From: an uncultured Chloroflexia bacterium
GTDB taxonomy: Bacteria > Chloroflexota > Limnocylindria > Limnocylindrales > CSP1-4
Assembly (NCBI GenBank): GCA_963766735.1
Contig: CAVYBU010000008.1
Coordinates: 96,001-160,000 of the forward strand
DNA length: 64,000 nt
Direction: 5' to 3'
Below are positions 45,392 through 64,000 of the stretch, piece after piece. The stretch's first letter is position 1; each line of letters opens with the position of its first letter. A model generated the notes under the pieces. That model made no database searches. It was given only the letters and a program-made list of their open reading frames with translations, and had not been told where the DNA came from. A program made the translations under genes and the position numbers.

Positions 45392-46981
45392 TCAGGGGCC
45401 GGGCGACGGCGGTGGCAGCGAAGGCGACGGCGGGGCCATCAGCGAACGCTCGAGCTCACGGTCCAGCCGGCGCTTGGTCAGCCACAGGTACGCAACCCCG
45501 AGCAGGATCAGCGCCAGGACGATCACCATCGCCGCGCGCCGGAAGTTCGTCTCATCGATCTTCGCGGTCGCGAGCGCCTTCGCGTCCCCGGCCTTGGTCA
45601 CGGCATCGGCGGACAGCTCGGCAATCGACGTGAGCTTGGTCGTGTGGACGGCCGCCTGGGCCTGGATCAGGCTCGTCTTGGCCCCGGCCAGCGCCACCTC
45701 GGCATCGGAGGTGATCATGCCCAGCCCCGCGGCATGCTGGATCTCGTCCTCCGCGTCCAGGTAGGCCTCCTCGGCGCTCGTGACCGCGTCCGAGATCCCC
45801 TCGATCTGCGAGTAGATCTGCGAATCCGGGTGGTGGCAGGTGTCGCACCGCCGGTTCTCCGGTTCCTGGAACTGGTCGAGCTCCAGGCGCAGCGTGTGGT
45901 TCTGCAGGTCATGGCACGTGACGCAGGCGTAGTCGGGCGGCGTGGGATGGAAGAAGAGCTCCGAACTCGGCTTGGTGACATCGTGGGTGCCGTGGCAGGT
46001 CCAGCACTTCGGGGCCACGGCCTGCAGCTCCGAGTGGCGGCTCTCCATGTACAGGTCCTGGGTCGCCGTGTGGCACTTGCCGCACACGTCGACCACGGTC
46101 GTCGACGTTGGCGGCTGGGCGTCGTGGGAGCCGTGGCAGCCCACGCAGGACGGTGCGCGAAGGTCCTTGTTGTCCAGGAGCGCGTGACCGTGAACGCTCT
46201 TGGAATAGACGTCGTACTGGTCGGTGGGGATCCCGTACGGCTCCATGCGCTTGGCGTCGGCGTGGCAGCTGGCGCACAGCTCCGGCACGTTGAGCGCAAA
46301 GGTCTTGGCCGTCGGGTCAGAGACCTTCTTGACGTCGTGCACCCCGTGGCAGTCGCTGCAGACGGCGACGCGAACGTCGTTGTTGACGATCAGCTGCTGG
46401 CCGTGGACGCTGGACCAGTACTTCGCGTACTGGTCGGTCGGCAGGCCGGACGCCTTCATCGTGTCGACGCTGGCGTGGCAGCTGCCGCACAGCCCCACCG
46501 TCCCCTGGCGGTCGGGCGCCCCCACGAAGCCGATCGCCGGGTCCATCGCCTTGGTGATCTGGTCCGATCCGGGATCGCCGCCGTGGCAGTCGGCGCAGGT
46601 CACGCCGCCCTGGCCATGGACGCTGTCCTGCCATTGGGCCGCGATATCCGCCTGCTTCGCGTTGACCGCGTTGTGGCAGTCGTAGCAGCCGTTCTCGCCC
46701 CCACCATCCGGGTGGGCGACCTGCGGCGGAACCGGCGGCGCGGTGGCAGGGGGGATCGTCGCCGTTGGAGCCGGCGTCGCGTACATCCACTCGGTGTCCG
46801 ACGGGCCGGGCGTCTGGGCGGCGGGCGCCGAAGCTGATGGGGACGGGGACCCCGCGGCGGCCGCCGACGGGCTCGGGCTCTCAGCGGAGGCCGAGAACGC
46901 GACCGCGAACCACGCGAGGCCGGCGAGGGCGAGCGTGCCGCCGAGCCGGACGAGCCGGCGCACCCTGGGCTGGTGGAGCAT
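45392..46981 (-). CDS. Decaheme c-type cytochrome, signal peptide plus C-terminal TM anchor
   Basis: 10 CxxCH (CYDCH, CADCH, CGSCH, CSDCH, CASCH, CVGCH, CGKCH, CWTCH, CVTCH, CDTCH). Confidence 0.93.
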   Translation of the reverse strand: MLHQPRVRRLVRLGGTLALAGLAWFAVAFSASAESPSPSAAAAGSPSPSASAPAAQTPGPSDTEWMYATPAPTATIPPATAPPVPPQVAHPDGGGENGCYDCHNAVNAKQADIAAQWQDSVHGQGGVTCADCHGGDPGSDQITKAMDPAIGFVGAPDRQGTVGLCGSCHASVDTMKASGLPTDQYAKYWSSVHGQQLIVNNDVRVAVCSDCHGVHDVKKVSDPTAKTFALNVPELCASCHADAKRMEPYGIPTDQYDVYSKSVHGHALLDNKDLRAPSCVGCHGSHDAQPPTSTTVVDVCGKCHTATQDLYMESRHSELQAVAPKCWTCHGTHDVTKPSSELFFHPTPPDYACVTCHDLQNHTLRLELDQFQEPENRRCDTCHHPDSQIYSQIEGISDAVTSAEEAYLDAEDEIQHAAGLGMITSDAEVALAGAKTSLIQAQAAVHTTKLTSIAELSADAVTKAGDAKALATAKIDETNFRRAAMVIVLALILLGVAYLWLTKRRLDRELERSLMAPPSPSLPPPSPGP

Positions 46982-46998
46982 CGCTGTCCTCGGTCATC

Positions 46999-48079
46999 TC
47001 AGCTGACGTAGCCCCAGATCGTGAACACGATGAGGCCGACGATCACGAGGGTGGCTCCCGCGACGGCGATCTTGCGCCGGCGCATCACGACCTCCGGGTT
47101 CCGGTCCAGGAACGGCCAGATCACGAGCACCGCGACCCCGACGATGGGCACCATGATGCCGATCACCTTGATCGGGATGACCTTGAGCAGCTGGTAGACG
47201 CCGAGGTAGTACCACTCCGGCTTCGTGTGCTCCGGCGTCTGCAGCGGGTTCGCCTGCTCCTCCAGACCGGCCGGGAAGACCGAGGCGAGGACGACCAGGA
47301 TCGCCAGCAGGACGTACCAGGCCATCAGCTCGTCGATGATGTAGTGCGGGAAGAAGGGCCGCTGGGGCTCCTTCTCGATCTCGGGCGTCATGACGCGAGG
47401 CTCGGGGCGCTTGGGGTTCGCGAGGCCGAGCTGGTGCACGAGGATGAGGTGCACGGCGAGCAGCGCCACCAGGGCCAGCGGGCAGCACCAGGACGTGGAT
47501 CCCGAAGAAGCGGGTCATCGTGTCACCCGTGACATCCGCTCCGCCCCGGAGCAGCAGCAGCAGGGAGTCACCGATGAGCGGCACGCTGCCGGCGATCTCC
47601 GTGCCCACCACCGTCGCCCAGTAGGCGAGCTGGTCCCAGGGCAGCAGGTACCCGGTGAAGCCAAAGGCGAGCGTCACCATCAGGAGCAGCGAGCCGAAGA
47701 CCCAGGTGAGCTCGCGCGGGTACTTGTACGCGGCCTGCATGTAGACCCGCACCAGGTGCAGGACCACGAACAGGATCATCAGGTTGGCGGCCCAGTGGTG
47801 GACGGACCGGATCAGCCAGCCGAAGCTGACGTCGCTGGTGATGAACTTGACGCTCTCGTAGGCGGCTTCGGGCGTCGGCTTGTAGTACAGCGCCAGCAGG
47901 GTGCCGGTGGCCGCCTGGATGCCGAACAGGAACAGGGCGATGCCGCCGAAGTAGTACGTCTTCGCTGACATCGGGATGCGGACGTGCAGGCTGGCCCTGA
48001 TGACGGGACCGATCTTCGTCCGCTGGTCGAGCCAGCTGGTGGCCTTGCCGCCGGTGGGGGCCTTTGGGGTGGCCGCCAT
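46999..48079 (-). CDS. Cytochrome b of a Rieske/cytochrome b complex, b6 and subunit IV parts fused (frameshift near 47481)
   Basis: GWLIRSVHHWAAN, FTGYLLPWDQ, RFFGIHVL; shifted frame gives AVHL..HQLG, PFFP, KPEWY. Confidence 0.9.
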
Positions 48080-48080
48080 C

Positions 48081-48596
48081 TCAGGCCTCCGTCAGGTAGA
48101 TCTGGTCGCCCTCGACCGACACGGTGATCGGCGCCAGCGGTGCCGGCGGCGGGCCCGAGACGACCACGCCGGTCGCCGGGTTGAAGCGCCCGTCGTGGCA
48201 GGGACACTGGATGGCGCCGATCATGTCGTTCCAGGCGACGACACAGCCAAGGTGCGTGCAGATCGCGGAGAAGGCCTTCACGCCCTGGTCCGTGTTGACC
48301 ACGATCGCGGGCTTGCTCCCCATCGCGACGACCTTGCCGGCCCCGGCGGGGATATCCGCGGTCGTCCCGACCAGGACCTTGCCGCCGCCCGCGGAGGCGC
48401 CGTTCTTCGAGGGGATGAGAAACCCGATGACCGGGGTCAGGACCATGGCGGCCGTGGTCACGATGGTCAGGCCGCCCAGCCAGCGCAGGAAGCCTCGCCG
48501 CGTGGTCTGGCCGTCCGCCTCAGCCGGTGGACCACCACCCTCCGTGGCCGGACCACCACCCTCCGTGACCGATCCTGCGCGGGCCTCTGGTTCCAA
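48081..48596 (-). CDS. Rieske 2Fe-2S subunit with Tat signal/anchor
   Basis: TRRGFL, CTHLGC, CPCHDGRF, SGPPPAPL; TTG start after GGAGGG. Confidence 0.92.
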   Translation of the reverse strand: MEPEARAGSVTEGGGPATEGGGPPAEADGQTTRRGFLRWLGGLTIVTTAAMVLTPVIGFLIPSKNGASAGGGKVLVGTTADIPAGAGKVVAMGSKPAIVVNTDQGVKAFSAICTHLGCVVAWNDMIGAIQCPCHDGRFNPATGVVVSGPPPAPLAPITVSVEGDQIYLTEA

Positions 48597-48820
48597 TGCG
48601 CCCTCCGGGCGACGGGAGCACCAACCGCATGGTTGCAGCCCAATGGACGGATTGTGGGCGGTTGCACGGGCACAACAACCTATGGGTCGATATAGAAAAG
48701 GCACATTCCGGGTGACACATGGCCCGCCGCCGGAATGACCAGCGGCCCTGAGGCGCGCAGGCATCCCGCAGTCGCCGGTGCTCAGGCGCGCGCAGACGCC
48801 CGGCGCTCAGGCCCGGCGGG

Positions 48821-50575
48821 TCAGGATCTCGGGGTCAGTGGCCACGCGACACCAGTGGGAAGGTCCGGCAGCGTCGTGCCCTCCGTGCCTTCCTCGGCGC
48901 CTCCCTCCGTGCCGTGGAACGACGGCGACGTAACGGGCAGCACCGGATCCGCGTGGCAGCGGGCGCAGTACACGGGCTGGTGGCAGTAGGCGCACGCCGT
49001 GTTGCCCTGGTCGCGGATGACCTTGGCGTGGTTGGTCGACATCGTGTCGTGGTCCACGGTGACGGCGCCCGTGGCGTGGCAGTTGACGCAGTAGTCGCGG
49101 GCGTGGCACTCGCCGCACGAGTTTCCACCCGGGTCGATGTCGGTCGACACGTCCTTGTGGCTGAAGACCCACAGGTCATCGGCGTGCGTCGTCGGCGGCT
49201 CGCCGAGCGGCAGGCTGGCGACGGCCGGTCCGATCTGCGGGAACGTGTGGCAGGTGCTGCAGGCGGACGGGATGGTCTGCCTGGTGGCCACGCCATCCTT
49301 GACCAGGAAGTGGCCGCCGTCGTGGCAGCGGAAGCAGCCGGGGAAGTCCATGTGCCCCAGTTGGTTCGGGTACGTGCCGGGGGTGACGCTCATCTCCGGC
49401 GTCGACGACACGCGGTGGAGGGCCTTGATCTGCTCGATCGCATTGTCGATCTGGGCCGCCTTGGAGGCCGCGACGTCCGGGTAGTTGGCCGCGTAGAAGT
49501 TCTGCAGCTTGTCGATCTCGGCATCCGCCGTCGCGTCGTCCGGGTAGCCCGCCCACAGGAGCCGCATCCCTTCCCGTTTGATGTACGGGAGCGTGGAGTC
49601 GATATCGCCCTTGAACAGCTCGTAGTCCATGTCCGTGCGCGGGTTGGGGATGGCGTGCCCCGCCCGGTTGTGGCAGTCGTAGCACGTCATCAGGCTCATC
49701 GTCTCGGTTTCCAGGATCGCGTCGATGTCGGGCTGGACGTCCTCGGCAACGCTGATCTTGTCCTGGGCGATGAACTCCTGGGTCGATCCATCGCGACCCT
49801 CGGATACGACGTAGTCGATGGTGGCCTTGTGCTCGTCCGGCGAGGCGAACGTGAGCTCGCGGATGACATGCCAGTGCACGCCGCGCTCGGCATCGAGGGC
49901 ATCGCCGCCACCTGGGCGGATCATCAGCCCGACGAAGTTACGGGTGTTCGGCTCGTCCTCGAGGAACTGGGTGCTGGCCTTGAGGACCGCGAGGGCCTCC
50001 CGCTCAACGTCATGGCACTTGTCGCAGGTGTCGGACGCCTTGGGCAGGAGCGAGTGCTCGGGGGGCAGGATCGGCGTGGGGTAGGTGCCCAGGACGACGC
50101 TCACCAGCTGGCGGGTGCCGCTCATCTTGGCCTTGATCCAGCCGGCGATGCCCGGTTCCACGTGGCACTCGCCGCACGTGACCTCGGCGTGGGCGCCGGT
50201 CTTGTAGGCCTCGAGCTCGGGGTCCATGGTGTGGCAGCGTCCGCAGAAGTCGGCCGTCTCCGTCCAGTGGACCAGCGAGACGCCGGTGAACACGCCGACG
50301 AAGCCGAGCGCCCCCAGGATCAGCAGCAGGGCCAGCAACCCGCCCTTGGAGCTTGGGAGGTGGATCCGGCGGCCACGCAGGTAGAACGGGTTGCGGCGGC
50401 CACGCAGGTAGAACGGGTTGCGACGACGAGCCTTGGCGGGTTCAGAAACCCCCTCGGTCGCCACGGGCGCCTCCGCCCCCTTGGAAGGCCCGGCAACCGG
50501 CTCGTCACCGGCCCCCGGCGGCGTCACCCCCGCTTCGGCGGGCGGCAGGGCGTCGGGCGTCTCGGGGTCGCTCAT
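48821..50575 (-). CDS. NapC/NirT-like membrane-anchored decaheme cytochrome c
   Basis: TM helix then TETADFCGRCHTM..H..VTCGECH; 10 CxxCH in total. Confidence 0.9.
   Translation of the reverse strand: MSDPETPDALPPAEAGVTPPGAGDEPVAGPSKGAEAPVATEGVSEPAKARRRNPFYLRGRRNPFYLRGRRIHLPSSKGGLLALLLILGALGFVGVFTGVSLVHWTETADFCGRCHTMDPELEAYKTGAHAEVTCGECHVEPGIAGWIKAKMSGTRQLVSVVLGTYPTPILPPEHSLLPKASDTCDKCHDVEREALAVLKASTQFLEDEPNTRNFVGLMIRPGGGDALDAERGVHWHVIRELTFASPDEHKATIDYVVSEGRDGSTQEFIAQDKISVAEDVQPDIDAILETETMSLMTCYDCHNRAGHAIPNPRTDMDYELFKGDIDSTLPYIKREGMRLLWAGYPDDATADAEIDKLQNFYAANYPDVAASKAAQIDNAIEQIKALHRVSSTPEMSVTPGTYPNQLGHMDFPGCFRCHDGGHFLVKDGVATRQTIPSACSTCHTFPQIGPAVASLPLGEPPTTHADDLWVFSHKDVSTDIDPGGNSCGECHARDYCVNCHATGAVTVDHDTMSTNHAKVIRDQGNTACAYCHQPVYCARCHADPVLPVTSPSFHGTEGGAEEGTEGTTLPDLPTGVAWPLTPRS
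50367..50420. repeat. Exact 27-bp tandem duplication (NPFYLRGRR x2)
   Basis: CGGCGGCCACGCAGGTAGAACGGGTTG x2. Confidence 0.9.
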
Positions 50576-50582
50576 CGCGTCC

Positions 50583-51182
50583 TCAGTTCATCAGGGCCGC
50601 AACGGCGCGGTCCATCTCGTCCCTGGGGAGCGCACCGATCCGGACCTCCCGGACCTTCCCGTCAGGGCCGATGAAGAAGTGGGTCGGGATGCCCATCGAC
50701 CGGTAGGCCGCCGCAATGTCGGCATTCGGGTCCACCACGATGGGGAAGGTCAGCGCGGCCCTGCCGGCGTACCCGCTGACATCCTCGGCGGTCTCGTTGA
50801 TGAACACGCCCAGGACCACCAGGCCCTGGTCCTTGTTCGCGCGGTACGTGGCCTCCAGGTCCGCCGACTCGGTCCGGCAGTCGGGGCACCACGAGGCGCC
50901 GAACGTCAGCCAGACCGGCTTGCCGGCGTAGTCCGAGAGCGACACGGTCGTGCCGTCGTAGGTGACGCCGGTGAAGTCCGGCGGGACCGCGCCCACCACG
51001 GGGGCAGCGGCAGCCGCCCCCTCGCCCAGGTCGATCTGGGTCACGCCGTCCGATGGCCCCTGGCCGCTGGCCGCGTAGACGAGGACCCCGATCACGACGA
51101 CCGCGATCACGCCGATGCCGATCGTCTGCAGCCGGCCGGCCGTACGCCCGGAGGACCGGGCCGTGGTTCCCGCTGCGCTCAT
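50583..51182 (-). CDS. resA: TlpA/ResA thiol-disulfide oxidoreductase
   Basis: N-terminal TM, ASWCPDC, GIPTHFFI. Confidence 0.88.
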   Translation of the reverse strand: MSAAGTTARSSGRTAGRLQTIGIGVIAVVVIGVLVYAASGQGPSDGVTQIDLGEGAAAAAPVVGAVPPDFTGVTYDGTTVSLSDYAGKPVWLTFGASWCPDCRTESADLEATYRANKDQGLVVLGVFINETAEDVSGYAGRAALTFPIVVDPNADIAAAYRSMGIPTHFFIGPDGKVREVRIGALPRDEMDRAVAALMN

Positions 51183-51211: not shown

Positions 51212-52123
51212 TCAGCCGAGGCCGGAGTAGCTGTGGAGCCCGCCGAAGAACAGGTTACCGAAGTAGGTGAACAGCGTGGCCGCGAAGCCGATCACGAGCA
51301 GCACTGCCGCCCGCTTGCCGCGCCAGCCGCGCATGACGCGGGCGTGGAGGTAGGCGCCGTAGATGAACCAGGTCACGAGCGACGCGGTCTCCTTGGGGTC
51401 CCAACTCCAGTAGCTGCCCCACGCCGTGTCTGCCCAGACTGCGCCGAGGACGATCGTCAGGGTGAGGAACGGGAAGCCGACGATGACCGCGCGGTACCCG
51501 ATGTCGTCCAGCACGTCCAGCCGCGGGAGGCCCCAGCCGCCGGGCTCGTCGCGGTTCGTGACCCAGGCGATGAACACCTGCAGCAGGTACAGGACCGACG
51601 CGGCGAAGGCGATGGTGAAGCTGCCGTAGGCGACGATTGCCACCGCGACGTGGACGGTCAGCAGGAGGTTGTTCTGCAGGGCCGGGACGAGCGGCGCGAT
51701 GTCGGCCGGAATGGTCCACGCGTAGAGCAGCATCGCGAGCGCGACCGGCATCGCGATCAGCGCGAGGATGCGCTGGTGATACCGGCGCTCGAACAGCATG
51801 TAGGCGAGCAGGATCCCGAACGCGAACGCCATCGAGAACTCGTACATGTTCGTGAACGGGCCGTAGCCGGTCGCGATGGTTCGGAACACGAGGCTGGCGA
51901 GGAGCGTGAACACTGCCAGCCAGCCCAGCATCGTGGCGTAGCGCCCGATGGCCGCCGTGCGGGGCCCGGAAGTGATGCCCACGGATCCGCTGGTCACGGG
52001 TGCACCGGCCGTCTGCATGCGGGCGGCCCGGAGTCCGGACACCGCGTACATCAGGTAGAAGATCGTGGCGAGCCCGGTGCTCAGCATCGCCGCGATGAAC
52101 ATGTACCCCGAGAGCTTTTCCAT
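51212..52123 (-). CDS. resC: Cytochrome c synthase, System II (ResC/CcsA)
   Basis: PFTNMYE, LVPALQ, HV, WWD domain GAVWADTAWGSYWSWDPKET, GLHSY. Confidence 0.95.
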   Translation of the reverse strand: MEKLSGYMFIAAMLSTGLATIFYLMYAVSGLRAARMQTAGAPVTSGSVGITSGPRTAAIGRYATMLGWLAVFTLLASLVFRTIATGYGPFTNMYEFSMAFAFGILLAYMLFERRYHQRILALIAMPVALAMLLYAWTIPADIAPLVPALQNNLLLTVHVAVAIVAYGSFTIAFAASVLYLLQVFIAWVTNRDEPGGWGLPRLDVLDDIGYRAVIVGFPFLTLTIVLGAVWADTAWGSYWSWDPKETASLVTWFIYGAYLHARVMRGWRGKRAAVLLVIGFAATLFTYFGNLFFGGLHSYSGLG

Positions 52124-52136: not shown

Positions 52137-53603
52137 TCAGCTCTGCGCCGGCGTCTGCAACGCCGCGCGAATGTCAGTGACCAGGTTCTCGAAATCGGTG
52201 GCCTGGGAAACGTCCTTGGTGGTCAGGGTGGCCATGCCGAGGACCGCGCCCCCGTTCGGGCGGGCGACGATGCGGCCCCAGACTCGCTTGTGGCGGATCA
52301 TAAAGCGGATCGAGAAGCCCCCGAACAGCAGGAGCGAGCCAATCCAGATGAACAGGACCCCGGGATCGCGGGCCACGTTGAGGCCGGTGAACTGGGTCTC
52401 GCGCTCGAAGGTGACCGTGAGATCACCCAGCTGGGTGGCCACGCCCTGGTCGATGATGCCGTCCGCGATCTGAGAACCCTCACCCGCGGTGTACAGCTCC
52501 GCCTGGATCTGGCCGGGCTTGATCATCCCGTCGCCGCTTCCCAGCGTGCCCACCAGCCAGATCACCTCGCCGGCGCCCGGGACGGTGAACGAGCCCACCG
52601 GCCGGTTGTCCGCGTTCGTCCGCCACGCGAGCGGCACGCCGCCCGAGTAGAGGATCTCGCCCGCGGCATCCTTGACCGTCATCACGGCCGCGGCCCCGAA
52701 GAAGGCCTGGTAGAAGGTGAGGTTTCCGTAGCGGTACGGATCGTTGACCCGCACGGTGTGGCGGTCGATCTCGGCCCCGTCCTTGAACACGACGATCTGG
52801 CTGGCGTAGTCGATCGGCGAACCCGTGACAGTGTCGTACTTGTCGGTGAAGTCGATCAGCTGGACGCTGAGGCCCGGTTCGGCGACCACGGGGAGCGTCT
52901 GCCCCTCGGCGACCGTGAACCCAGCGTCGCGATAGCCGAACATGCCGCCGATGATGGCGCCCGCCAGGATGACGACGATCGAGACGTGGGCGATCAGGCC
53001 CGCCCACGCTGCGTACCGGAAGCGGTCCCCGTAGAGGTGGATCGCGCCGTCGTCGGTCGAGAGGAAGCGGAAATGGCGGCCTCGCATGACGCTCTCCACG
53101 ATCGCCAGCGTCTCAGCGGGGGTATGCCGGACGACGATGGCCTCGTGCTGCGGGGCGTGCTCGAAGAACTGCGGCCCCACGTCCACGCGGGGCTTGGTGG
53201 TGGTCCGCCAGATTCCAGGGATCCGGTGGATCGAGCAGGCGATCAGGCTGATCGTCAGGCCCGCCACCAGGATCCGGAAGAGGATCGAGTTGAAGACCTC
53301 GAACATCTGGATGGTGTCCAGGAACCCGGTCCACCCGCCGTACTTGGGACGGATCTCATCCAGCCAGTTGGCCTTCGCGTCGGCACTGACCAGGACCCCG
53401 GGAGGCGCCTGGATGATGAGCGATCCGACGACGCCGAGCGCGGCGATGGCCAGCATGAGCACCATGGCCGTGCGCATGGACGAGAGGAAGTGCCACAGCC
53501 CTTCCAGCGCCCGGTCGACGCGATCCATGAACGAGGGCCCCGCCGCCGCGGCGGCCGGAGCGCCATTCGGCGGAAGCGGCCGGGTGTGGACCTCTTCGGT
53601 CAT
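52137..53603 (-). CDS. resB: Cytochrome c biogenesis protein ResB/CcsB
   Basis: LSSMRTA, GSLIIQ, AH, VNDP, FYQA, RDPG. Confidence 0.92.
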   Translation of the reverse strand: MTEEVHTRPLPPNGAPAAAAAGPSFMDRVDRALEGLWHFLSSMRTAMVLMLAIAALGVVGSLIIQAPPGVLVSADAKANWLDEIRPKYGGWTGFLDTIQMFEVFNSILFRILVAGLTISLIACSIHRIPGIWRTTTKPRVDVGPQFFEHAPQHEAIVVRHTPAETLAIVESVMRGRHFRFLSTDDGAIHLYGDRFRYAAWAGLIAHVSIVVILAGAIIGGMFGYRDAGFTVAEGQTLPVVAEPGLSVQLIDFTDKYDTVTGSPIDYASQIVVFKDGAEIDRHTVRVNDPYRYGNLTFYQAFFGAAAVMTVKDAAGEILYSGGVPLAWRTNADNRPVGSFTVPGAGEVIWLVGTLGSGDGMIKPGQIQAELYTAGEGSQIADGIIDQGVATQLGDLTVTFERETQFTGLNVARDPGVLFIWIGSLLLFGGFSIRFMIRHKRVWGRIVARPNGGAVLGMATLTTKDVSQATDFENLVTDIRAALQTPAQS

Positions 53604-55849: not shown

Positions 55850-55881
55850 GATTGGAGAGGCTCGGATGCGGGCGCAGAGGA

Positions 55882-58254
55882 TCAGGGGCTCGTCGGCAGC
55901 GCGTAGGTGTAGTCGACGTGAGACTTGCCGTGGCAGGTGAGGGTGCAGCTGCCCCATGCGGTCGGCGTCGCGGCCCTGAACATCTCGTTCGCGCCGTGCG
56001 GGATTACGTTGGGAGCGAAGTTCACCAGGCCGGTCGCTGGCGCCTGCCCATTCACGGCGAGGGCAGACCCGTGGATACGGAAGTGGCACTCCGCGCAGAT
56101 GGCGTTGCCCTGGCCGGCGCCGCGGACGTCGATGTCGCGGCCACCGACACCGTTGCCGGAGATCTCGTTCATGTGGTAGCCGTGCCAGTTGAAGTTCGTG
56201 TCGGCTCGGTAGTCGGCGCTATCGTCGACCATCGGCGCTTCCGCATGGCACACGTAGCAGAGCGCGAAGTCCTGCGCCTGGTAGAGCCCGCGCGGCCTGA
56301 GGTCTCGATCCCTGTACGGCGCGATCAGGATCCCGCGGTTCGGTGAGGCATGGTTGCTCAGGATCGCGTCCGCGGCCGGCTTCGGGACCTGAACGGTCGC
56401 CGAGGCGTCGCCGTGGCAGTTCTCGCAGCGGACGGTGTCCTGGGTTCCAAAGACCCACAGCTTGTAGGGGGACGTCCCGGCAAGGCTGAGCGCCATTGCG
56501 TTCGTCTGGTTCTTCCCCGCGGCCTCCACTGGGTGATAGGAGACGTTCGCCGGGTTCAGCTCGATGCCCTTGTCAAGCGACCAGCGACTCGGATGGGTCG
56601 GATCCTGCGCGGGCAGCTTCGTGAAACCGGAGTGGCATTTGAAGCACAGCTGGTACTCGAAGCCGGACGTGTTCTGAAGCGTGTAGGTCGGCGCCTCACC
56701 GGCCGCGCCGTTGACCACCGCGACGCCGGACGCACCGGCGATCGCACCGGAGGCCGACCAGCCGCCGACGCTGTTCACGGGTCGCGTGGCGTCCGCGAGG
56801 TGCGGCTGGTGACAGTCTCCACAGGCGCTGTGCCGGTCCAGCGTGGCGCCGAACTCATCCTCCTTGCCCGAAACGTGGCTTGAGGGCGACGTGGCCGGGT
56901 GCGAGTACCACGACGACGTCGTCGGGTCGTTCGCCGGGAGCGACGAGCTGGACCAGTCGCTCTGGACGTCGCTCGACGCGCCCGTGCCGTCGTGGCAGAC
57001 GAAGCAGGTCGTCGACTGGGGGCCGGACTGCTGGAGCAGCATCAGCCCCTGGGCATCGTGGGCCGCGTGGCACGAGGCGCACGCGTCTGAGGCCAACCCG
57101 GAGATGATGTGCGGCGAACCTCCGGCGGCGGCTGCCGCGACGGACGTCTGCAGCGCGTACGTGGCCGTCGCGCCCCTGCCGGTCGACGCTGCCAGAGAGC
57201 GGGCGGTCGAACCGATGGAGGGGTCCAGCCGGTAGAGGGGGACGGGCTTGTCAACGGGCTTGCCCTTGCGCTGTCCGGGCGACAGGTCGAGGGACGGCTT
57301 GGTTCCCAGGGCCAACTCCGCCTCGGCCCCGGGAAGCTCGGTGGACCCGTCCATGAGGCGGAACAGGTAGTGCGCGCCCCAGTTCGCATCCACGGTGGCC
57401 CGGATGGCGAATTCGATCTCGGTGAAGCTGTGGGCGGGGAGCGTGATTTCCGTGAGCTCCCGGCCGGCGCTGGTCCTGCCCTGGACGGGCGTCGCCAGCG
57501 GATCGGTGGCCTGGCCGAGGCGCAAACCGGCGGCCTCGATCGGCTCCTGGCGCGGATCGAAGACTCGGCCGTCGTCGGACGCGCCGTAGAACGCCTTGCC
57601 CAGATCCGGGTCCACCATGGGCAGGGTCATCCAGTCGGCGGACGCGCCGGAGAACTGAAGCGCCGGCGCGATCGCGGCGTCGGCATCGGAATCGTTGACA
57701 ACCTGGAACCGGACTCGGTACACGGTGAACCGCTGCGCCGCGTCGAGGGGTGCGTCCAGCTGACCTGGGTCGGTCACCGCACCGGCCTCGCTGACGGTAT
57801 CGATCCAGACATGGTCCACACGCGGACCGGTGGGCTCGACCGAGGGCTCAGCGGACGGTTCAACCGACGGCTCGACCGAGGGCTCAGCGGACGGTTCGAC
57901 CGACGGCTCGACCGACGGCTCAACCGACGGCTCGACCGACGGCTCGACCGACGGCTCGACCGAGGGAGCCGCGGTGGGTGCAGCAGACGGCTGGACCGAC
58001 GGAGCCGGGGTGGGCTCGACCGAGGGAGCCGGGGTGGGCTGGACCGACGGAGCCGGGGTGGGCTGGACCGACGGAGCCGGGGTGGGCTGGACCGACGGAG
58101 CCGGGGTGGGCTGGACCGACGGAGCCGGGGTGGGGTCCAGGGCGCGTGCGGCCGGCACGGCGGGAGTCAGCGCTCCCACGGCGCCCGCAAGGACGAGGAG
58201 CACCCCAAACAGGGGACCGGCCCGGCGGCTTGCGGGTCGTTGCTGGCGGTTCAT
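55882..58254 (-). CDS. Secreted octaheme c-type cytochrome with Pro/Thr/Ser repeat stalk
   Basis: Signal peptide (AARA), repeats, non-heme domain, 7 CxxCH plus terminal CTLTCH (CxxxCH). Confidence 0.9.
57832..58135. repeat. Coding tandem repeats, 24-bp (PTPAPSVQ) and 12-bp (PSVE) units
   Basis: Visible in both DNA and translation of the octaheme gene. Confidence 0.92.
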
Positions 58255-58457
58255 GCTGGCGAGGTCTTCGTCATGGCGAGGGGTTGGACGTACACCCGTA
58301 GAGGCGGTTGACCCGATCGGTTCTCGGCATTGTGACGGACTGTGAGCTGCGCGGAGGAGACGTCAAGCGTCGGCTTTGGCGGCTCTTCGGCGAGGCCCGT
58401 GCCGGTGAGGGTTGCGGGTGGCCGGGACGATCGTCGCCGGCCACCGCGCGCTGGTGG

Positions 58458-59673
58458 TTACGGAAGGTACGGGTTCGGGGTCGGTCCGACGAAGTCGCCG
58501 ACCACCATCGTCCCCGTGGGATCGTGACAAGCCTGGCACGTGCCGCGGTTGTCGATCTTCAGGAGGCGAGAGTCGCCCACCGGGGCAGCCGCGCCGCCCG
58601 GGAAGTCCATGTTGGCGGAGTTGTAGCCCGTCATCTGGGCGTTGGAACCGTGCGACACGTGGCACGTGATGCAGTTCCGGGTGGGGTTGAGGGACGTGTG
58701 CCGATACTTGAAGATCGCATCGGCTTCCTCCACATCCCACCCCTGGCTCAGGTAGCGGGAGTGGCACGTGGTGCACCAGTTGGCGATCTCCGTGGTGAAC
58801 GTCGAGGGCATGCCGTTGGGCGCGTCGTTGGACCCGCCGCTCGCGGCATCCCACGGGACGTAGCGCCGGAAGTAGTCACCAGCCGTTGATGACAGGCCGA
58901 GCCCAACAACCTGGCTCGCGTAGAGCGTTCCGGTGCCGCCGGCGGTCTGGATGATGGTGAAGTTGCGCGAGTCGTCGTTCCGGGAGCGGCGCGTCCTGGA
59001 CGACCACTCCTGCAGCCGCAGGCACAAATGCATCGGTGCCGATGGCGACCGGTGCGGGGATGGGGTTGAGGATTCGGTAGTTGCCGTTGCCGTGCGGGTT
59101 GTGGCAGGTGCCACATTCCATCTCGACTTCGGGTCCCGCGTACGCGGCGAGGTCGTTGGGGCCGTTGCCCCAGGCGACGCCGTCGGCCGGTCCCACCACG
59201 CCTGCCACGTTGGGCAGGTGGGCGGAGGTCACCGGCTGCGATCCGGCGGTCCGGACCGGCACCTTGGCTCGCTGGGAGACGTTTGACGTGCCTCTCGGAA
59301 CCGAGAGACGCGCAGCCTCACCCGACCCAATGCGGGCATTGACGAAGCCGCCACCTCGGAGATAGCCAAGAACGACGGAGCCACGGTATGTCGTGGTCCC
59401 GACGCGGTACTGGATGCCGCTCTCGACATCGATCTTGGAACCGAGGCCGGTGGCCCCGTGGCAGGACAGGCAGAGCGCAGTCCCCTCTTCGACGAGGAGG
59501 AACATGCCCTGCGCCGTGTGGGCGCGGTGGCAGCCAGCGCAGTTATCGGAGTTGATCCCGTTTACGCCGCTGTTGTTCGCAGCCACATGTGGTCCACTGT
59601 CTGCGAAGACGGGGACCGCGGCAAGGAACAGCCAAAGACTTCCGGCTGCAATCAGCAACATCAGCCTTCTCAA
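58458..59673 (-). CDS. Secreted hexaheme cytochrome c, OmcS-like (frameshift near 58980)
   Basis: TTG start after AAGGAGGTGA; signal peptide; CAGCH, CLSCH, CGTCH in ORF 58876..59790 and CTTCH, CITCH, CQACH in ORF 58458..59114; about 404 aa when joined. Confidence 0.88.
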
Positions 59674-59777
59674 ACTGTCCTCACCTCCTTTCTCTGTGCT
59701 ACGTGGGCTTGACATTGGCCGCCACGATTGGCGGCGGCGCAGAACTCCGGTATCCACCTCCCTTTGCTGGTTCGGGT

Positions 59778-60848
59778 TCAGTAGCTCCACAACTGCACAC
59801 GGTTGTTGGCGGAGTCGGCGATGTACAGCCGGCCTCGTGCATCGACCGTGATGCCGTTGGGGTAGGCGAAGGCTCCGTCGCCCGAGCCCTGGCTCCCGAA
59901 GCTGCCCAGGTACTCGAGTCGCGACGACCCTTCTTGGTAGCGTCCGAAGACGAAGACGGTGTGACCGGTCGAGTCAGCGACGTAGACCCGACCCTGTCCG
60001 TCCAGGGCCACCCCTCGCGGCAGGCCAAGGTTCCCCTCGCCGGCTCCCCGTCCAACACGGGCGACGATGGCCCCATCCTGACCGTAGACCAGCAGGCGGC
60101 CGTTGTTGCTGTCGGTCACGTACGCGTAGCCGGCATCGTCGATGGCCACGCCGTTGGGAAAGTCGAGGTCATCGTTCTCGCCGAAGATGCGGACCTGCGC
60201 GCCGGATGGATCGAACACCCGCACCCGGCCCGGGACGTCGCCGACGTCGGTGACGTACAGGTTGCCCGCCGCATCGAACGCGAGCCCCAGCGGCTGCCAG
60301 CCCGGGGCGTCCGCTGGCGGGGAAAACGCCCGCAGATAGGCGCCCTGGGTGTCGTAGATGTAGATCGATGCCGTCTGACGGTCCGAGACATAGATCTCGC
60401 CCGTGAGCGGGTTGAGCGCGAGGTAGGTCGGCACGTGGTCGGTGCCCGTGGAACTCGGCGGCAACATGGCCTGCACCTCGTTGCCACCGGTGTCGTAGAT
60501 GCCCGCCGTCTGGTCCCCGGCGGTCTCGCCGATGTAGATCCGCTCGCCGTCAGGCGTCACGGCGACGCTCATCGGACGTGAGGCGCCGTAGATCGACGTC
60601 GTGTACGTGGGCATGATCGTCTCGCCCGGGATCGTCGGGACGGGGATCGGCTGGCGGAACAGCAGGTACCAGATCGCGAGGCCGAGCAGCGCCAGGAAGG
60701 CCAGCAGCAGCATCAGCAGCAGCAGCAGCCGGCGGCGCCGGCGGTTGTCCTCCTCCTCGAGGACGTCCTCCGGAGGGGCCGTGTCGCCCGGTGATGCCGC
60801 CGCGCCTGTCGGGGGGATGGCATCCACGTCGTCGCCGGGAGCGGTCAT
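59778..60848 (-). CDS. Membrane-anchored NHL-repeat beta-propeller protein
   Basis: Repeated P.G.A.D..G..YV.D..N.R units; N-terminal TM. Confidence 0.92.
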   Translation of the reverse strand: MTAPGDDVDAIPPTGAAASPGDTAPPEDVLEEEDNRRRRRLLLLLMLLLAFLALLGLAIWYLLFRQPIPVPTIPGETIMPTYTTSIYGASRPMSVAVTPDGERIYIGETAGDQTAGIYDTGGNEVQAMLPPSSTGTDHVPTYLALNPLTGEIYVSDRQTASIYIYDTQGAYLRAFSPPADAPGWQPLGLAFDAAGNLYVTDVGDVPGRVRVFDPSGAQVRIFGENDDLDFPNGVAIDDAGYAYVTDSNNGRLLVYGQDGAIVARVGRGAGEGNLGLPRGVALDGQGRVYVADSTGHTVFVFGRYQEGSSRLEYLGSFGSQGSGDGAFAYPNGITVDARGRLYIADSANNRVQLWSY

Positions 60849-61906
60849 CAGTTGCTCCCTTCGGCGCTGGGTGACGGCATGACATCCGGGTGAGCCTGTG
60901 TGCCGTCACTCACGCGGCTCAGCCCGAGCTGCGCGGCCTGGCTCTCGGCGTCCAGCTCGAGGGCCTTCCGGTACCAGACCGCGGCCGTTGCCGGGTCGCC
61001 GCTCGCCTCGGCCAGCAGCCCCAGCCCGATCCGGGCATCGACCCCAGCATCACCGTCCGCGATGGCCTCGAGGCGGGCAACCGAGTCGGCCGGGGCGGAG
61101 GACTCACCGGCCGCGAGTACCGCCATCGCGGTGGCCATGGCGTCCGCCCACTCGGCCTCCCCCGCGTCGCCCGTCGCCGTGTAGGCGTCGGCCAGCGACC
61201 GGTACGGATCCGGCCAGCGCGTGGGCACGAACAGGATGGCCTTCCGCAGGGGTTCGAACGCCTCCTCCGGCTTGCCGGCCTTCACGTACGCGGCGCCGAG
61301 AAGGTTCATCGCGTCCGCGTCGGTGCGCTTGATCGCCAGGGCCCTGAGGAGGTTGTCCACGGCGTCGTCCGGCCGGTCCTGCTGCAGCGCGATCTCGCCG
61401 AGCCCGTAGTAGGCGGTCTGAAGCATCGGGTCCACGTTGGCCTGCTCGGTGTCCCTGGCGATCTCGACGACCTTCGCGAAGTCGGCCGCCGCCGCGTCGG
61501 CGTCGCCGGTCTTCTGGAACGCGAGGCCGCGGCTGATGTAGGCGGCCTCGTCCCGCTTCCCGGTCCTGATGATCTCCGAGTACTGCGCAATCGCATCCTC
61601 GTACCGACCTGCCGTGAAGTACAGGTCTCCGAGCCGGCCCCGTGACGCGATGTCGGTTGGGTCCGTGCGGACAGCCTCCTCGACCACCGCCATCTCGCGG
61701 TTCACGATCGAGGGCGCCGGCGCGCGGAATCTGTCAACGGCGTAGAAGGCGACGAAGGCGACGATACCGACGAACAGCAGCAGCGCGAGCCGCTTGATCC
61801 AGCGGTTCAGCTGCGCCTCGGGCATCGAGGTCAGGGACGTGACCCGGGACATGAATGGCACCTGTACTCCTTGGCCGGCGGAATCAGGGAGACCGACCTG
61901 CGTCAA
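60848..61906 (-). CDS. Membrane-anchored TPR protein
   Basis: N-terminal TM plus several TPR units; start may be 61852 or 61825. Confidence 0.88.
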   Translation of the reverse strand: MTQVGLPDSAGQGVQVPFMSRVTSLTSMPEAQLNRWIKRLALLLFVGIVAFVAFYAVDRFRAPAPSIVNREMAVVEEAVRTDPTDIASRGRLGDLYFTAGRYEDAIAQYSEIIRTGKRDEAAYISRGLAFQKTGDADAAAADFAKVVEIARDTEQANVDPMLQTAYYGLGEIALQQDRPDDAVDNLLRALAIKRTDADAMNLLGAAYVKAGKPEEAFEPLRKAILFVPTRWPDPYRSLADAYTATGDAGEAEWADAMATAMAVLAAGESSAPADSVARLEAIADGDAGVDARIGLGLLAEASGDPATAAVWYRKALELDAESQAAQLGLSRVSDGTQAHPDVMPSPSAEGSN

Positions 61907-61933
61907 TCATCGCGCACGCGCCCCCCCAGTTGC

Positions 61934-62081: not shown

Positions 62082-62600
62082 TCAGGCCGGCAGCAATTCC
62101 TTGGGCGTGTCGAAGTTGCCGGGCACGTCCACCTCGATGACGTCGCCGGTGATCCGGATCGGGAACTGCCGGAGGGGCGTGGTGGGCTTGCCGGAGATCA
62201 CGCTTCCGTCCAGGGCGAACTGGCCGTCGTGGCAGTGGCAGGAGAACTGCCCGACGTCCGGGAGCCAGCCGTAGGAGCACAGCCCGTGGGTGCAGCGCGG
62301 GTCGTAGGCGATGATCTCCCCGGAGGACTTCTTCACCAGCCACACGGAGGCGGCCGTCGGCCTGCCGCCCAGGTCCACGGTGAACTCGACCTCCGTGGGG
62401 GTGCCCGGGACGAGGTCGTCCGGGTCGGTGTCCAGCTCCACGGGGACGGGCGGCCCGGCGCAGCCGGCGAGGATGCTGCCCAGGCTGCCCGCCGCCAGCG
62501 CGCCGACGCCGATGAGCAGCAGGACACGACGCCTTGGGACCGGCGTGGTGCGTGGATCGAAGGCCGGTGCGGTCTGCGGCCGGCGGAGGTCGTCGCCCAT
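62082..62600 (-). CDS. Second Rieske 2Fe-2S protein, probable Tat lipoprotein
   Basis: PRRRVLLL..ILAGC, CTHGLC, CHCHDGQF. Confidence 0.9.
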   Translation of the reverse strand: MGDDLRRPQTAPAFDPRTTPVPRRRVLLLIGVGALAAGSLGSILAGCAGPPVPVELDTDPDDLVPGTPTEVEFTVDLGGRPTAASVWLVKKSSGEIIAYDPRCTHGLCSYGWLPDVGQFSCHCHDGQFALDGSVISGKPTTPLRQFPIRITGDVIEVDVPGNFDTPKELLPA

Positions 62601-62613
62601 AACGGGCGACAGA

Positions 62614-63024
62614 CTAGCCCGGAATCGGCGAGGGCTGCAGGCTGGGGTCCGCGTCGGCGGCAGGTGCGGGCTTGCCGGCGGCACCGACCACCGCGCGGAT
62701 CGCGGCCAGGAAGTCGTCCGGGCGGGTGGACAGGGTCTCGCGGCGAAGGGTCCAGGCGCGGGTGGTGGTGATGTCCACGTCCAGCACCACGGGGCAGTCG
62801 GACCGGCGGACGACATCTGCGGCATCAACCGCGCCGCCCTCCTCCACCACGATCACGTCCGGGTCCAGGGCGATGGCGGCATCAACCGCCTCCGTGATGC
62901 CGATGTCCACGGCATCCACGGCCACCCCGGGCTCGGCGGCGAGCATCTTCAGCAGCCCCTCCCCCATCAGGGGATGGCTGTACAGGAGAAGCACGCGCAC
63001 CGGATCTGGCGACACGATGGGCAT
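62614..63024 (-). CDS. Degenerate stand-alone receiver-like protein
   Basis: VRVLLLYSHPLMGEGL..PDVIVVE resembles a NarL receiver without the canonical acidic residues. Confidence 0.6.
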   Translation of the reverse strand: MPIVSPDPVRVLLLYSHPLMGEGLLKMLAAEPGVAVDAVDIGITEAVDAAIALDPDVIVVEEGGAVDAADVVRRSDCPVVLDVDITTTRAWTLRRETLSTRPDDFLAAIRAVVGAAGKPAPAADADPSLQPSPIPG

Positions 63025-63174
63025 CCTCGAGCGCGCGGGTCGCTGACGTACGTCCCGTAATGGGATGCTAGGGGTACGGGGCGTTCAATCCAATCCGTCG
63101 CCCGGCACAACCTGCGCCGGGGCCGGATGTATCCGACGGGGGACGCCGGGGTGTGCCCGATCCGCCCTTCGAGG

Positions 63175-63867
63175 TCAATCCCGGTTCGGCTCCTGGTTCG
63201 CGTAGCCCTGCCGAACCGCGTAGGCGGCCGCCTGCACCCGGTTGGTGAGGTGGAGCTTCTCCAGGGCGTTGTGGACGTGGTTCTTGACCGTGCCCTCGGT
63301 GATCGTCAGCTCGTTGGCGATCTCCTTGTTGGACATCCCCGCGGCGACCAGCTGGAGGATCTCCGACTCGCGGCGGGTCAGGACGGTGGGCTGGGGTGCT
63401 GCCGCGGCCTGGCCGCGCGTGGGGATCCCGCCGGTGCGCAGGGCCTCCAGCAGCCGGGTGGCCACCGCGGGGGCGATGGGCGCCTCGCCGCGCATCACGC
63501 CGCGCATGTCCTCGAACAGCTGCTCTGGGCGGACGTTCTTGAGCAGGTAGCCGTTGGCGCCGGCCTTGATCGACTCGAACAGGTCGTCGTCGTCCTCGGA
63601 CACCGTGAGCATGACGATGGGCGTCTTGATCCCGGCAGCACGGATGGCCGCAACGCCGTCAACGCCCGAGGCGACAGGCATGTTCACGTCCATGATCACG
63701 AGATCGGGATGGAGCGCGCGGACCTTCTCCAGGGCGTCGCGACCGTTCTCACCCTCGCCCACGACCGTCATGTCGAACTGGGCGCTGATCAGGGTCGCGA
63801 GCGCCCTGCGGAACAGGGGCTGGTCATCGACGAGCAGCACCCGGAGCTTCGGAGGAAGGTGTTCCAC
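63175..63867 (-). CDS. NarL/FixJ family response regulator
   Basis: LLVDDQP, PDLVIMDVNMP, GANGYLLK, LTRRESEIL..SNKEIA..TVKNH. Confidence 0.95.
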   Translation of the reverse strand: MEHLPPKLRVLLVDDQPLFRRALATLISAQFDMTVVGEGENGRDALEKVRALHPDLVIMDVNMPVASGVDGVAAIRAAGIKTPIVMLTVSEDDDDLFESIKAGANGYLLKNVRPEQLFEDMRGVMRGEAPIAPAVATRLLEALRTGGIPTRGQAAAAPQPTVLTRRESEILQLVAAGMSNKEIANELTITEGTVKNHVHNALEKLHLTNRVQAAAYAVRQGYANQEPNRD

Positions 63868-64000
63868 GCATGTCCTCTGGGTCGAGCTGGACGACGATCG
63901 TCGTCCCGTGTTGCGGGGCAGTCTGCACATCGATGCTGCCACCGATCTGCTCGACCCGCTCGCGCATGGACTTCAGGCCGAAGCCGCCTTCCATGGAGCT
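63824..64000 (-). CDS. NarX/DesK-type histidine kinase, 3' end only
   Basis: Manual translation GGFGLKSMRERVEQIGGSIDVQTAPQHGTTIVV; stop at 63826-63824. Confidence 0.88.
   Translation of the reverse strand, partial: SSMEGGFGLKSMRERVEQIGGSIDVQTAPQHGTTIVVQLDPEDMRGTPSSEAPGAARR

Follow-up and report, generated by a model that had tools for sequence, protein, structure and literature searches.

Cytochrome nanowires have been characterized in double-membrane Geobacter relatives, in which β-barrels are thought to mount them, and OmcE-type wires are also described from two archaea; in the same account, OmcE clusters always contain two β-propeller lipoproteins and most OmcS/OmcE regions are said to hold a large outer-membrane β-barrel (PMC13712944). 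In OmcS itself, as far as the description in PMC6584659 extends, all 12 axial ligands are histidines, one ligand of heme 505 is supplied by the neighbouring molecule and the order of the hemes follows that of the motifs. The OmcS homologs named in one source belong to Geobacter, Geoalkalibacter and Anaeromyxobacter (PMC10954620), and one survey adds a single homolog in a Coriobacteriales genome (PMC7399161). In this study, a block of 16 co-oriented minus-strand genes (45392–63942) was analyzed in a stretch of 64,000 nucleotides from contig CAVYBU010000008.1 (assembly GCA_963766735.1, positions 96,001–160,000 of the forward strand), which is referred to below as the window. The block encodes a hexaheme cytochrome that resembles OmcS, three further multiheme cytochromes, two Rieske proteins, a cytochrome b and a cytochrome c maturation system, and it is conserved in what is probably the class Limnocylindria. 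We read this cluster as a porin-less electron conduit that leads from the quinol pool to the cell surface and ends in an OmcS-like polymer, and we give this reading slightly better than an even chance.

Among described systems other than OmcS, two kinds of conduit are close to the cluster. The porin–cytochrome conduits MtrCAB and Geobacter Pcc/Ext are similar in that a multiheme relay connects a quinol oxidase to the outside of the cell; however, no porin gene was found in the cluster DNA examined. The other is the chain of the Gram-positive Thermincola potens, for which Carlson et al. reportedly proposed in 2012 a stepwise path over a membrane decaheme, a wall nonaheme and a surface hexaheme. 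This chain is likewise free of porins and consists of multiheme cytochromes only, with ∼10, 8–9 and 6 hemes from membrane to surface, whereas here all of the parts lie in one conserved operon-like block together with Rieske/cytochrome b and System II genes. The likeness is drawn from heme numbers, the sole link at the level of proteins being a Bacillota atlas cluster among the neighbours of the hexaheme. In the passages of the above survey that deal with the phylum, Chloroflexi are treated as organisms without a Gram-negative envelope, and the failure to find porin–cytochrome complexes in the Anaerolineales considered there is put down to their envelope (PMC7399161).

The hexaheme cytochrome and its relation to OmcS

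The hexaheme gene (58458–59661) carries three plus three CxxCH motifs across two reading frames, and its start is probably Met44 of the open reading frame (ORF) at 58876–59790. With its N-terminal piece, 1038 relatives were obtained at an expectation value (E) of ≤ 1e-3 among 8000 candidates scored, with names that include Candidatus Limnocylindrales, Chloroflexi RBG_16_72_14 and Chloroflexota. Clustered at 50%, the family comprised 1763 representative clusters at E ≤ 1e-3, some of them with repeated modules. Full-length relatives are 401–406 amino acids (aa) long, have a signal peptide and contain six CxxCH motifs that are invariant or near-invariant. Two profiles were built, one from 45 close relatives (A2) and one from 45 more diverse relatives (A3), and in both of them six further histidines are invariant or nearly so (H25, H48, H148, H190, H323 and H339 in the numbering of sequence P0001). 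Because the 12 conserved histidines equal the number that an all-bis-His hexaheme needs, such ligation is plausible on the basis of the alignment.

When compared with the PDB, profile A3 matched OmcS (6ef8_A/6nef) with E 3.9e-5 and 26.1 bits. Two of the matching stretches are in order and place profile positions 58–90 on OmcS residues 8–55 (hemes 1 and 2) and positions 185–358 on residues 128–337 (hemes 3–5). Over motifs 1–5, the hexaheme family and OmcS have the sequence contexts CxxCHxxH, LxCxSCHxPHG.YR, WCxxCHT and NCxxCHxAHxS in common. MtrA (6r2q_A) scored slightly better than OmcS (E 5.5e-6), but here one 40-residue paired-CXXCH motif was matched repeatedly, so that the likeness is that of a repeated short motif without collinearity; the other multiheme chains listed gave E 0.03 or worse. 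Models of the hexaheme made with AlphaFold2 (AF2) had a pLDDT of 60.5 when based on A2, which is poor and renders its Foldseek search meaningless, and a pLDDT of 76.6 with a pTM of 0.82 when based on A3.

Family residue H48 aligns with the histidine that stands two residues after the first CxxCH of OmcS. This residue of OmcS, numbered His16 by Wang et al. in 2019, is said to be the ligand given to heme 5 of the neighbouring subunit. A two-copy model of P0001 residues 23–402 with four hemes reached a score of 0.52 (0.57, 0.52 and 0.43 in the individual runs), compared with 0.00 for the best of three controls. The mark for such models is reached by 20 of 30 proteins solved as one-chain pairs and by one of 23 solved as single chains, counts that give only a rough calibration here (own alignment, ligands riding along), and the pass may reflect memory of the solved OmcS filament. 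Contact agreement was at least 93% and the partner pLDDT at least 89. The modelled interface is heterologous: residues 304–394 of copy 1, in the region of hemes 4–6, face residues 27–56 and 188–193 of copy 2, a surface that takes in heme motif 1, H48 and the CHNPH at heme 3. In copy 2, residue 48 contacts residues 304, 305, 319, 322, 323 and 356 of copy 1 in the heme 4/5 region, and residue 47 contacts C335 and C377. In the model, such an interface could repeat indefinitely, each subunit placing its heme 6 beside heme 1 of the following one. From this model together with the weak homology, the hexaheme is predicted to polymerize like OmcS, and we infer that it forms filaments located outside the cell.

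The hexaheme and OmcS of Geobacter sulfurreducens (6EF8, 6NEF) are thus alike in length (∼400 residues), in the same order of six CxxCH motifs, in 12 conserved histidines, in the histidine that follows the first motif and in the modelled head-to-tail contact. Their loci are alike as well, with an adjacent NHL propeller gene that lies directly upstream of the hexaheme here. Its counterpart beside omcS in Geobacter is GSU2505, whose product, according to PMC9070056, has NHL repeats and is a proposed requirement for OmcS. On the other hand, the hexaheme differs from OmcS in its motif spacing, in showing no detectable pairwise similarity and no Foldseek match, and in a β-rich insert between hemes 2 and 3 of its model; the host belongs to the Chloroflexota, with a presumed single membrane and no β-barrel in the region, and the cluster carries its own quinol oxidases and maturation system.

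Two hexaheme paralogs were observed in at least 28 of 73 related loci (among L022–L072), usually within a few kilobases of each other (tblastn matches longer than 150 aa), and Pfam detected two hexahemes at 8819–11281 of L045, whereas the window has one. These tandem paralogs are reminiscent of omcS/omcT.

The gene block and its conservation

The G+C content is ∼70% throughout the window, which gives rise to many long spurious ORFs, and genes were called from stop-to-stop frames filtered by third-position G+C (GC3), followed by Pfam and NCBIfam scans. The 16 genes are transcribed from high to low coordinates in the order NarL/LuxR regulator, 136-aa ORF, Rieske 2, TPR2, NHL protein, hexaheme, octaheme, TPR1, CcdA, ResB, ResC, ResA-like protein, 584-aa NapC-type decaheme, Rieske 1, cytochrome b and 529-aa decaheme. 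The four cytochromes contain 10 + 10 + 8 + 6 = 34 heme motifs, which is more than chance because none of the remaining GC3-supported frames of the window has a CxxCH. The genes from ccdA onward to the final decaheme are closely packed: wherever their starts are clear, neighbours overlap or are separated by a few tens of bases at most. Gaps of ∼120–260 bases lie on either side of the hexaheme and octaheme genes. N-terminal anchors in the form of hydrophobic segments are predicted for TPR2, the NHL protein, ResA, the NapC-like decaheme and the octaheme.

The Pfam and NCBIfam scans bore out the gene content given in the original prediction, namely four cytochromes with 34 heme motifs, a Rieske/cytochrome b pair, a second Rieske protein, CcdA–ResA–ResB–ResC, two TPR proteins and an NHL propeller, including the presence of System II and of a NapC/NirT-type protein. 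In place of its count of about 17 genes with a two-component system, 16 genes, regulator included, lie in the window; the 17th, the kinase, lies past base 64000 and is known from relatives only. The description of the cluster as complete does not stand for this copy: besides the sensor kinase outside the window, the hexaheme, ccdA and cytochrome b genes are each frameshifted, which had been read through earlier.

The NrfH/NapC-type membrane-anchored decaheme (48821–50575) has 10 CxxCH motifs and a transmembrane (TM)-like segment at residues 81–99, and matches Cytochrom_NNT with 42.1 bits, above the cutoff of 24.1. Its residues 76–202 match the NrfH structure 2j7a_C with E 3.2e-9, which places an NrfH-type quinol-dehydrogenase module in the protein, and six more hemes follow. 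The NCBIfam NrfH equivalog scored 53.1 bits, below its cutoff of 134.2, so that by sequence the protein is assigned to the broad NapC/NirT/NrfH family and not to NrfH proper. It has the N-terminal helix and tetraheme module of NrfH, NapC and CymA in common with them, and differs in a C-terminal extension of ∼380 residues with six further hemes and in lacking a partner gene of the NrfA type. A perfect tandem duplication of 27 nt was observed at 50367–50422 of this gene, which places RRNPFYLRG twice in the cytoplasmic N-terminus.

Downstream of it lies a trio of genes with the composition of a Rieske/cytochrome b complex, that is, an adjacent Rieske protein, the N- and C-terminal domains of cytochrome b and a c-type subunit, with the NCBIfam equivalogs below cutoff. 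Rieske 1 (48081–48764, start uncertain) matches Pfam Rieske with 51.1 bits, with a weak match to the PetC anchor, and scores 83.1 bits, below cutoff, for the b6f PetC of NCBIfam. Cytochrome b (46999–48079) consists of a b6-like N part and a subunit-IV-like C part, with matches to Cytochrome_B (173 bits) and Cytochrom_B_C (66 bits) in different frames; the N part scores 223.6 bits for ExtP and 221.7 bits for b6, and the C part matches subunit IV and ExtQ, all below cutoffs. The 529-aa decaheme (45392–46981) has 10 CxxCH motifs and TM-like segments at residues 10–28 and 483–501, corresponding to a signal peptide and a C-terminal anchor. It follows Rieske–cytochrome b directly, in the position and with the same C-terminal anchor as cytochrome c1/f in pet/qcr operons, and its PDB matches are to NrfA at the motif level only. 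The order of Rieske protein, cytochrome b and C-terminally anchored c-type subunit is that of the Geobacter ExtMNOPQS-type system (ExtP/ExtQ), of b6f and of actinobacterial QcrABC. In contrast to these, the b6-like and subunit-IV-like parts form one gene (same frame in seven of eight relatives) and the c-type subunit carries ten hemes instead of one or two.

All four components of System II are represented. CcdA (53618–54410, start approximate) is a thiol transporter of the DsbD type whose gene is frameshifted, the DsbD_TM profile being matched over positions 7–104 and 125–217 in different frames (halves of 25.9 and 33.2 bits). ResB (Ccs1, 52137–53603), a subunit of the cytochrome c synthase, scores 225.4 bits with Pfam ResB. 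The heme-handling subunit of the ResC/CcsA type (51212–52123; CcsB in NCBIfam) scores 159.6 bits with Cytochrom_C_asm and 231.5 bits with TIGR03144, above the cutoff of 187.6. The membrane-anchored, ResA-like thioredoxin (50583–51182) scores 91.5 bits with AhpC-TSA and 75.7 bits with Redoxin, and 86.7 bits with NCBIfam ResA, below the cutoff of 170.

The octaheme cytochrome (55882–58254) consists of an N-terminal hydrophobic segment, a repeat linker of ∼110 aa rich in Pro, Ser, Val, Thr and Glu, a heme-free middle domain and a C-terminal eight-heme domain; it matches the Pfam PT repeat and Paired_CXXCH_1. Its sites are seven CxxCH and one CxxxCH, and all eight are invariant in 32 sequences. 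The linker is encoded by tandem repeats at 57833–58134 (12 nt × 10.9 and 24 nt × 6.1, with 96% matches) that translate as PSVE/PAPSVQPT, and its length may vary between strains or be collapsed in assemblies. A profile of the heme domain (55885–57147; A4) matched OmcE (7tfs_A) with E 8e-6, which is not counted as homology of the domain: only the first paired-CXXCH motif was matched, at two places in OmcE. The same motif alone accounts for a match of A4 to a 218-aa multiheme chain (9yuq_N). A phmmer search with the whole octaheme was likewise discarded, as it returned only low-complexity repeat proteins that were matched via the linker.

Upstream of the hexaheme, the NHL-repeat β-propeller (59778–60848) scores 105.9 bits with Pfam NHL and has an N-terminal anchor (TM-like segment 41–59), and its start is overlapped by the stop of the N-terminally anchored TPR2 (60848–61906; many TPR matches in Pfam, TM-like segment 40–58). 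TPR1 (54407–55624) has a central membrane segment (TM-like, 193–211) and a C-terminal TPR domain (TPR_11, 57.6 bits). It also matches TPR_CcmH_CycH weakly (21.6 bits, cutoff 42), as does TPR2 below cutoff, and the two proteins may be apocytochrome chaperones serving maturation as likely as factors of wire assembly. The second Rieske [2Fe–2S] protein (62082–62828; Pfam Rieske 39.7 bits, TM-like segment 102–120) contains a twin-arginine signal followed by a LAGC lipobox-like motif (RRRVLLLIG...ILAGC), and its true start is probably near 62600. The response regulator of the NarL/LuxR type (63175–63942) scores 98.4 bits with Response_reg and 74.8 bits with GerE, and its 199.5 bits with NCBIfam NarL do not reach the cutoff of 250. 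Between these two lies the 136-aa ORF (62614–63024), probably a degenerate receiver-like domain, which has weak N-terminal matches to NarP/NarL in NCBIfam (E 5e-5), no match in Pfam and a relative with 35–94% identity in most related loci.

Conservation was assessed in 73 loci obtained by scanning species-representative genomes with the hexaheme family alignment; the window proteins were compared by tblastn, and only loci whose DNA extends far enough were counted, with 10-kb flanks. The titles of the loci are uncultured Chloroflexia (40), Chloroflexi/Chloroflexota (18), Candidatus Limnocylindrales or Limnocylindria (10), Anaerolineaceae (three), Actinomycetota (one) and Deferrimicrobiaceae (one). 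Titles of the Chloroflexota lineage are therefore carried by 71 of the 73, ten of which name Limnocylindria or Limnocylindrales, the latter an order of Chloroflexota, and the cluster probably belongs to the class Limnocylindria of this phylum. Upstream of the hexaheme, the NHL gene was found in 63 of 66 evaluable loci (within 3.5 kb), TPR2 in 58 of 61, Rieske 2 in 42 of 59 and the regulator in 49 of 54; downstream, the corresponding counts were 59/61 for the octaheme, 52/59 for TPR1, 43/56 for ccdA, 49/56 for ResB, 49/55 for ResC and 48/54 for both ResA and the NapC-type decaheme. The trio of Rieske 1, cytochrome b and decaheme mostly falls outside the 10-kb flank. It follows the NapC-type gene in L073, as in the window, and several other loci end in a Rieske 1 match, in keeping with this placement; in seven loci (L031, L035, L040, L041, L055, L064 and L072) the trio lies upstream of the regulator instead. 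It is contiguous in all seven loci that hold its three genes.

In L045, L004 and L008 a kinase with the domains GAF, HisKA_3 and HATPase_c lies directly upstream of the regulator and is followed by unrelated genes; the cluster therefore extends one gene past the window edge at base 64000. Among the ORFs scanned across the 64 kb, several of which had no Pfam match at all, no outer-membrane, porin or β-barrel Pfam family was found, and the flanks beyond the kinase in L004 and L008 likewise showed no porin family. With catalytic multiheme enzymes, the four cytochromes gave no match beyond the heme-motif level, the best being NrfA with E 0.0012 over ∼55 residues. The original prediction is supported as regards a Chloroflexota host, conserved gene order in most evaluable loci and the absence of a porin family from the window and the flanks of two relatives.

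The window and L045 are 86–96% identical in DNA in both flanks (64000–61178 and 55845–48479). Between them, window positions 55845–61178 have no DNA-level match to L045 positions 6825–13864 across the module of NHL, hexaheme and octaheme genes; protein identity is 34%, 53% and 50% for these three and 92–98% for the flanking proteins. The NHL–hexaheme–octaheme surface module seems, from this pattern, to have been exchanged between close relatives.

Three genes of the block are broken in this copy. The hexaheme break, near 58977/58978, is a 2-nt gap with respect to the DNA of L001 and L004, where the protein stops after ...QDAPLP and resumes at NDDSRNF... relative to full-length homologs of 401–406 aa. 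The ccdA break, near 53994/53995, is a 2-nt gap with respect to the close relative L045. The break in cytochrome b is due to one extra C in the run 47480–47482, as compared with L073 and L072, and sits between two histidine-bearing stretches of helix D. A natural split into b6 and subunit IV was considered for the latter and rejected, in view of this position and of the single frame in seven of eight relatives. Among related loci, the two pieces share a single reading frame in 57 of 60 for the hexaheme, 40 of 44 for ccdA and 7 of 8 for cytochrome b. Both halves of each broken gene have the high GC3 of coding sequence and 63–96% identity to relatives. The breaks are either assembly errors or very recent.

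Proposed function and competing readings

In the pathway that we propose, the NrfH/NapC-type decaheme and the Rieske/cytochrome b complex with its anchored decaheme c-type subunit would exchange electrons with quinol, as their families suggest, with menaquinol as the presumed source. The octaheme would be held at the membrane by its N-terminal hydrophobic segment, and its proline-rich linker of ∼110 residues would carry the eight-heme domain outward through the wall. The all-bis-His hexaheme would then polymerize head to tail: each subunit would bring its heme-6 region up to the heme-1 region of the following one, and the histidine just after the first heme motif would reach into the neighbour, to give a continuous heme chain beyond the cell. 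To judge from their position, the membrane-anchored NHL propeller and the TPR proteins may help to fold, mature or assemble the cytochromes. System II, which by established family knowledge attaches heme outside the membrane, would supply the 34 hemes from within the cluster, and the GAF-sensor kinase and the NarL-type regulator would control expression. The architecture of the kinase suggests that it senses a redox or gas signal; its layout presumably corresponds to that of DosS/DosT. The flow would most likely be outward, ridding the cell of respiratory electrons by passing them to extracellular acceptors under oxygen shortage. Two quinol modules could serve acceptors of different potential, for which the several quinol oxidases of Geobacter offer a parallel, or forward and reverse flow.

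A number of points count against such a conduit. The match of A3 to OmcS is just 26 bits, and the stretch covering heme 6 (OmcS 389–405 on profile positions 71–87) is insignificant, with 0.7 bits, and out of order. Searches of the PDB by phmmer with both hexaheme pieces and by hmmsearch with A2 reached no OmcS, even at E ≤ 1 or 10, and gave heme-motif-level matches only. Foldseek searches of the PDB with both AF2 models returned 0 matches with E ≤ 0.001, and the matches listed did not include OmcS, a weak negative in that the models carry no hemes and the fold consists mostly of loops with little regular secondary structure; the A3-based model also has β strands between hemes 2 and 3, a region outside the OmcS match. 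The label OmcS-like in the original prediction has some support from the collinear A3 profile match and the head-to-tail two-copy model, and none from single sequences, A2 or Foldseek. The complex model carried 4 of the 12 hemes and used an alignment of our own. Furthermore, three pathway genes (hexaheme, ccdA and cytochrome b) are frameshifted in the window, the Rieske/cytochrome b, second Rieske and maturation genes equally fit an ordinary aerobic chain, and the single-membrane (monoderm) envelope of Limnocylindria is presumed. The literature searched yielded no expression, localization or physiology data for Limnocylindria.

Two other functions have to be weighed. Electrons might flow inward, the surface cytochromes taking them from Fe(II), Mn(II), reduced humics or a partner cell and passing them downhill to an oxidase and, via Rieske/cytochrome b in reverse, uphill to quinone. 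This we regard as unlikely, if by no means negligible: Rieske centres are comparatively high in potential and the cluster has two Rieske proteins, acidophilic iron oxidizers use the bc1 complex in reverse, and the record of L051 is titled Mn-Chloroflexi, which is merely a hint. Multiheme wires are also reversible in principle, and electron uptake via surface cytochromes is among the processes described in PMC5815863. However, OmcS-type bis-His multihemes titrate low, with a midpoint near −130 mV in the account cited above (PMC13712944), an NrfH-type module normally oxidizes quinol, and the Pfam scans detected neither Cyc2 nor a cupredoxin or oxidase gene, within the cluster or elsewhere in the window. 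Sequence does not settle the direction, and outward flow is the most likely. The cluster might also be a respiratory island confined to the envelope, with the Rieske/cytochrome b–decaheme as complex III, System II for general maturation and no wire, in which the hexaheme and octaheme, dimers at most, would be bound to the membrane or wall and act as carriers or as reductases of soluble substrates. Such an island would resemble the stepwise chain proposed for Thermincola. The Foldseek result and the weakness of the OmcS profile match speak for such an island, as does an atlas that groups the hexaheme with generic Paired_CXXCH_1 clusters from Chloroflexota, Actinomycetota and Bacillota; the maturation genes lie inside the cluster, and both TPR proteins have weak matches of the CcmH/CycH type. 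Even so, the modelled interface is head-to-tail, an arrangement that builds polymers and does not close into a symmetric dimer, the NHL propeller is kept beside the hexaheme as it is beside omcS, the octaheme has a long repeat linker, and the four cytochromes fail to match catalytic multiheme enzymes beyond their heme motifs. An island is accordingly considered improbable, though a serious candidate.

The conduit could also be a decaying remnant in this genome, with three genuine frameshifts and a pathway that has ceased to be produced; in this copy the pathway works only if the breaks are sequencing errors. Three independent breaks lie within 18.6 kb in genes that the pathway needs, two of them are 2-nt gaps unlike simple homopolymer slips, and no frameshift was verified elsewhere in the window with a noisy GC3 frame-switch script and Pfam scans of alternative frames. 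Yet decay, if any, must be very recent because the halves keep their high GC3 and their identity to relatives. Sporadic breaks in the same genes of other loci (3 of 60, 4 of 44 and 1 of 8) fit assembly indel noise, and two further genes of the window, encoding URO-D and an ABC permease near 33.8 kb, have truncated Pfam coverage. Decay is regarded as quite unlikely, and the reading of the cluster as a porin-less conduit is retained.

A more far-reaching proposal, which is tentative and for which we would give rather less than an even chance, is that Limnocylindria build OmcS-type filaments on a single-membrane envelope, fed by the Rieske/cytochrome b–decaheme and the NrfH-type decaheme, tethered by the proline-rich stalked octaheme and free of porins, with the NHL–hexaheme–octaheme module exchanged like a surface-antigen cassette. 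In a literature search, neither an account of this cluster nor a report of electroactive Limnocylindria was found, and the combination of OmcS with Chloroflexi/Chloroflexota gave surveys only. A study by Shen et al. of 2025 (Cell Chem Biol) is said to describe a "widespread and ancient" OmcS assembly machinery and may already cover part of this. What would be new here is an OmcS-type system without a porin, in one operon with quinol oxidases and maturation genes and conserved across a class of Chloroflexota. If the proposal is true, abundant uncultured Limnocylindria of soils, aquifers and freshwater would be unrecognized players in the extracellular redox cycling of iron, manganese or humics. 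On the conduit reading itself, these bacteria, common in soil and freshwater, may exchange electrons with extracellular solids in either direction. If that reading is right, OmcS-type proteins would be extended to a deep uncultured lineage, the cluster would show how a wire can be assembled and anchored on a single-membrane cell, and its genes could serve as a concrete marker by which extracellular electron transfer is recognized in common soil and aquifer organisms. As a compact unit of 16–17 genes with its own heme-attachment system, it is suited to heterologous tests.

Neighbouring genes and further observations

Two of the related loci bear titles from outside the Chloroflexota with the same gene order, namely L001 (Actinomycetota, a contig of 4162 bp) and L068 (Deferrimicrobiaceae). 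The hexaheme of L001 is the most similar to that of the window, with 84% identity over the N-terminal piece, and mis-binning of short contigs seems likelier than transfer as the source of these titles. In L045 a toxin–antitoxin pair, with a Phd-like antitoxin and a HicA-like toxin, lies at 3937–4832 between the regulator and the 136-aa ORF and is absent from the window.

A promoter/terminator scan of the window returned 0 promoters and 4 terminators, compared with 4.4 expected; an Rfam scan gave 0 matches and a tRNA scan none. The rest of the window holds ordinary metabolic genes. In the URO-D gene (2968–4551), profile positions 1–102, the N-terminal third, are missing, and a scan of the other frames left a break unconfirmed; the ABC permease at ∼33750–33820 matches positions 2–136 of 184 of its Pfam profile with a GC3 frame switch nearby, again with a break unconfirmed in the other frames.

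An FdhD gene (44503–45633) adjoins the low-coordinate end of the cluster on the opposite strand. Beyond the kinase, L004 and L008 hold unrelated genes for an endonuclease/phosphatase-family protein and formate-dehydrogenase-like subunits, the latter being NuoF-like and molybdopterin Fe4S4-type genes upstream of the kinase at 2–2598 in L004 and 2–2723 in L008. Together with FdhD, these formate-dehydrogenase-like neighbours hint that formate oxidation is linked to the cluster.

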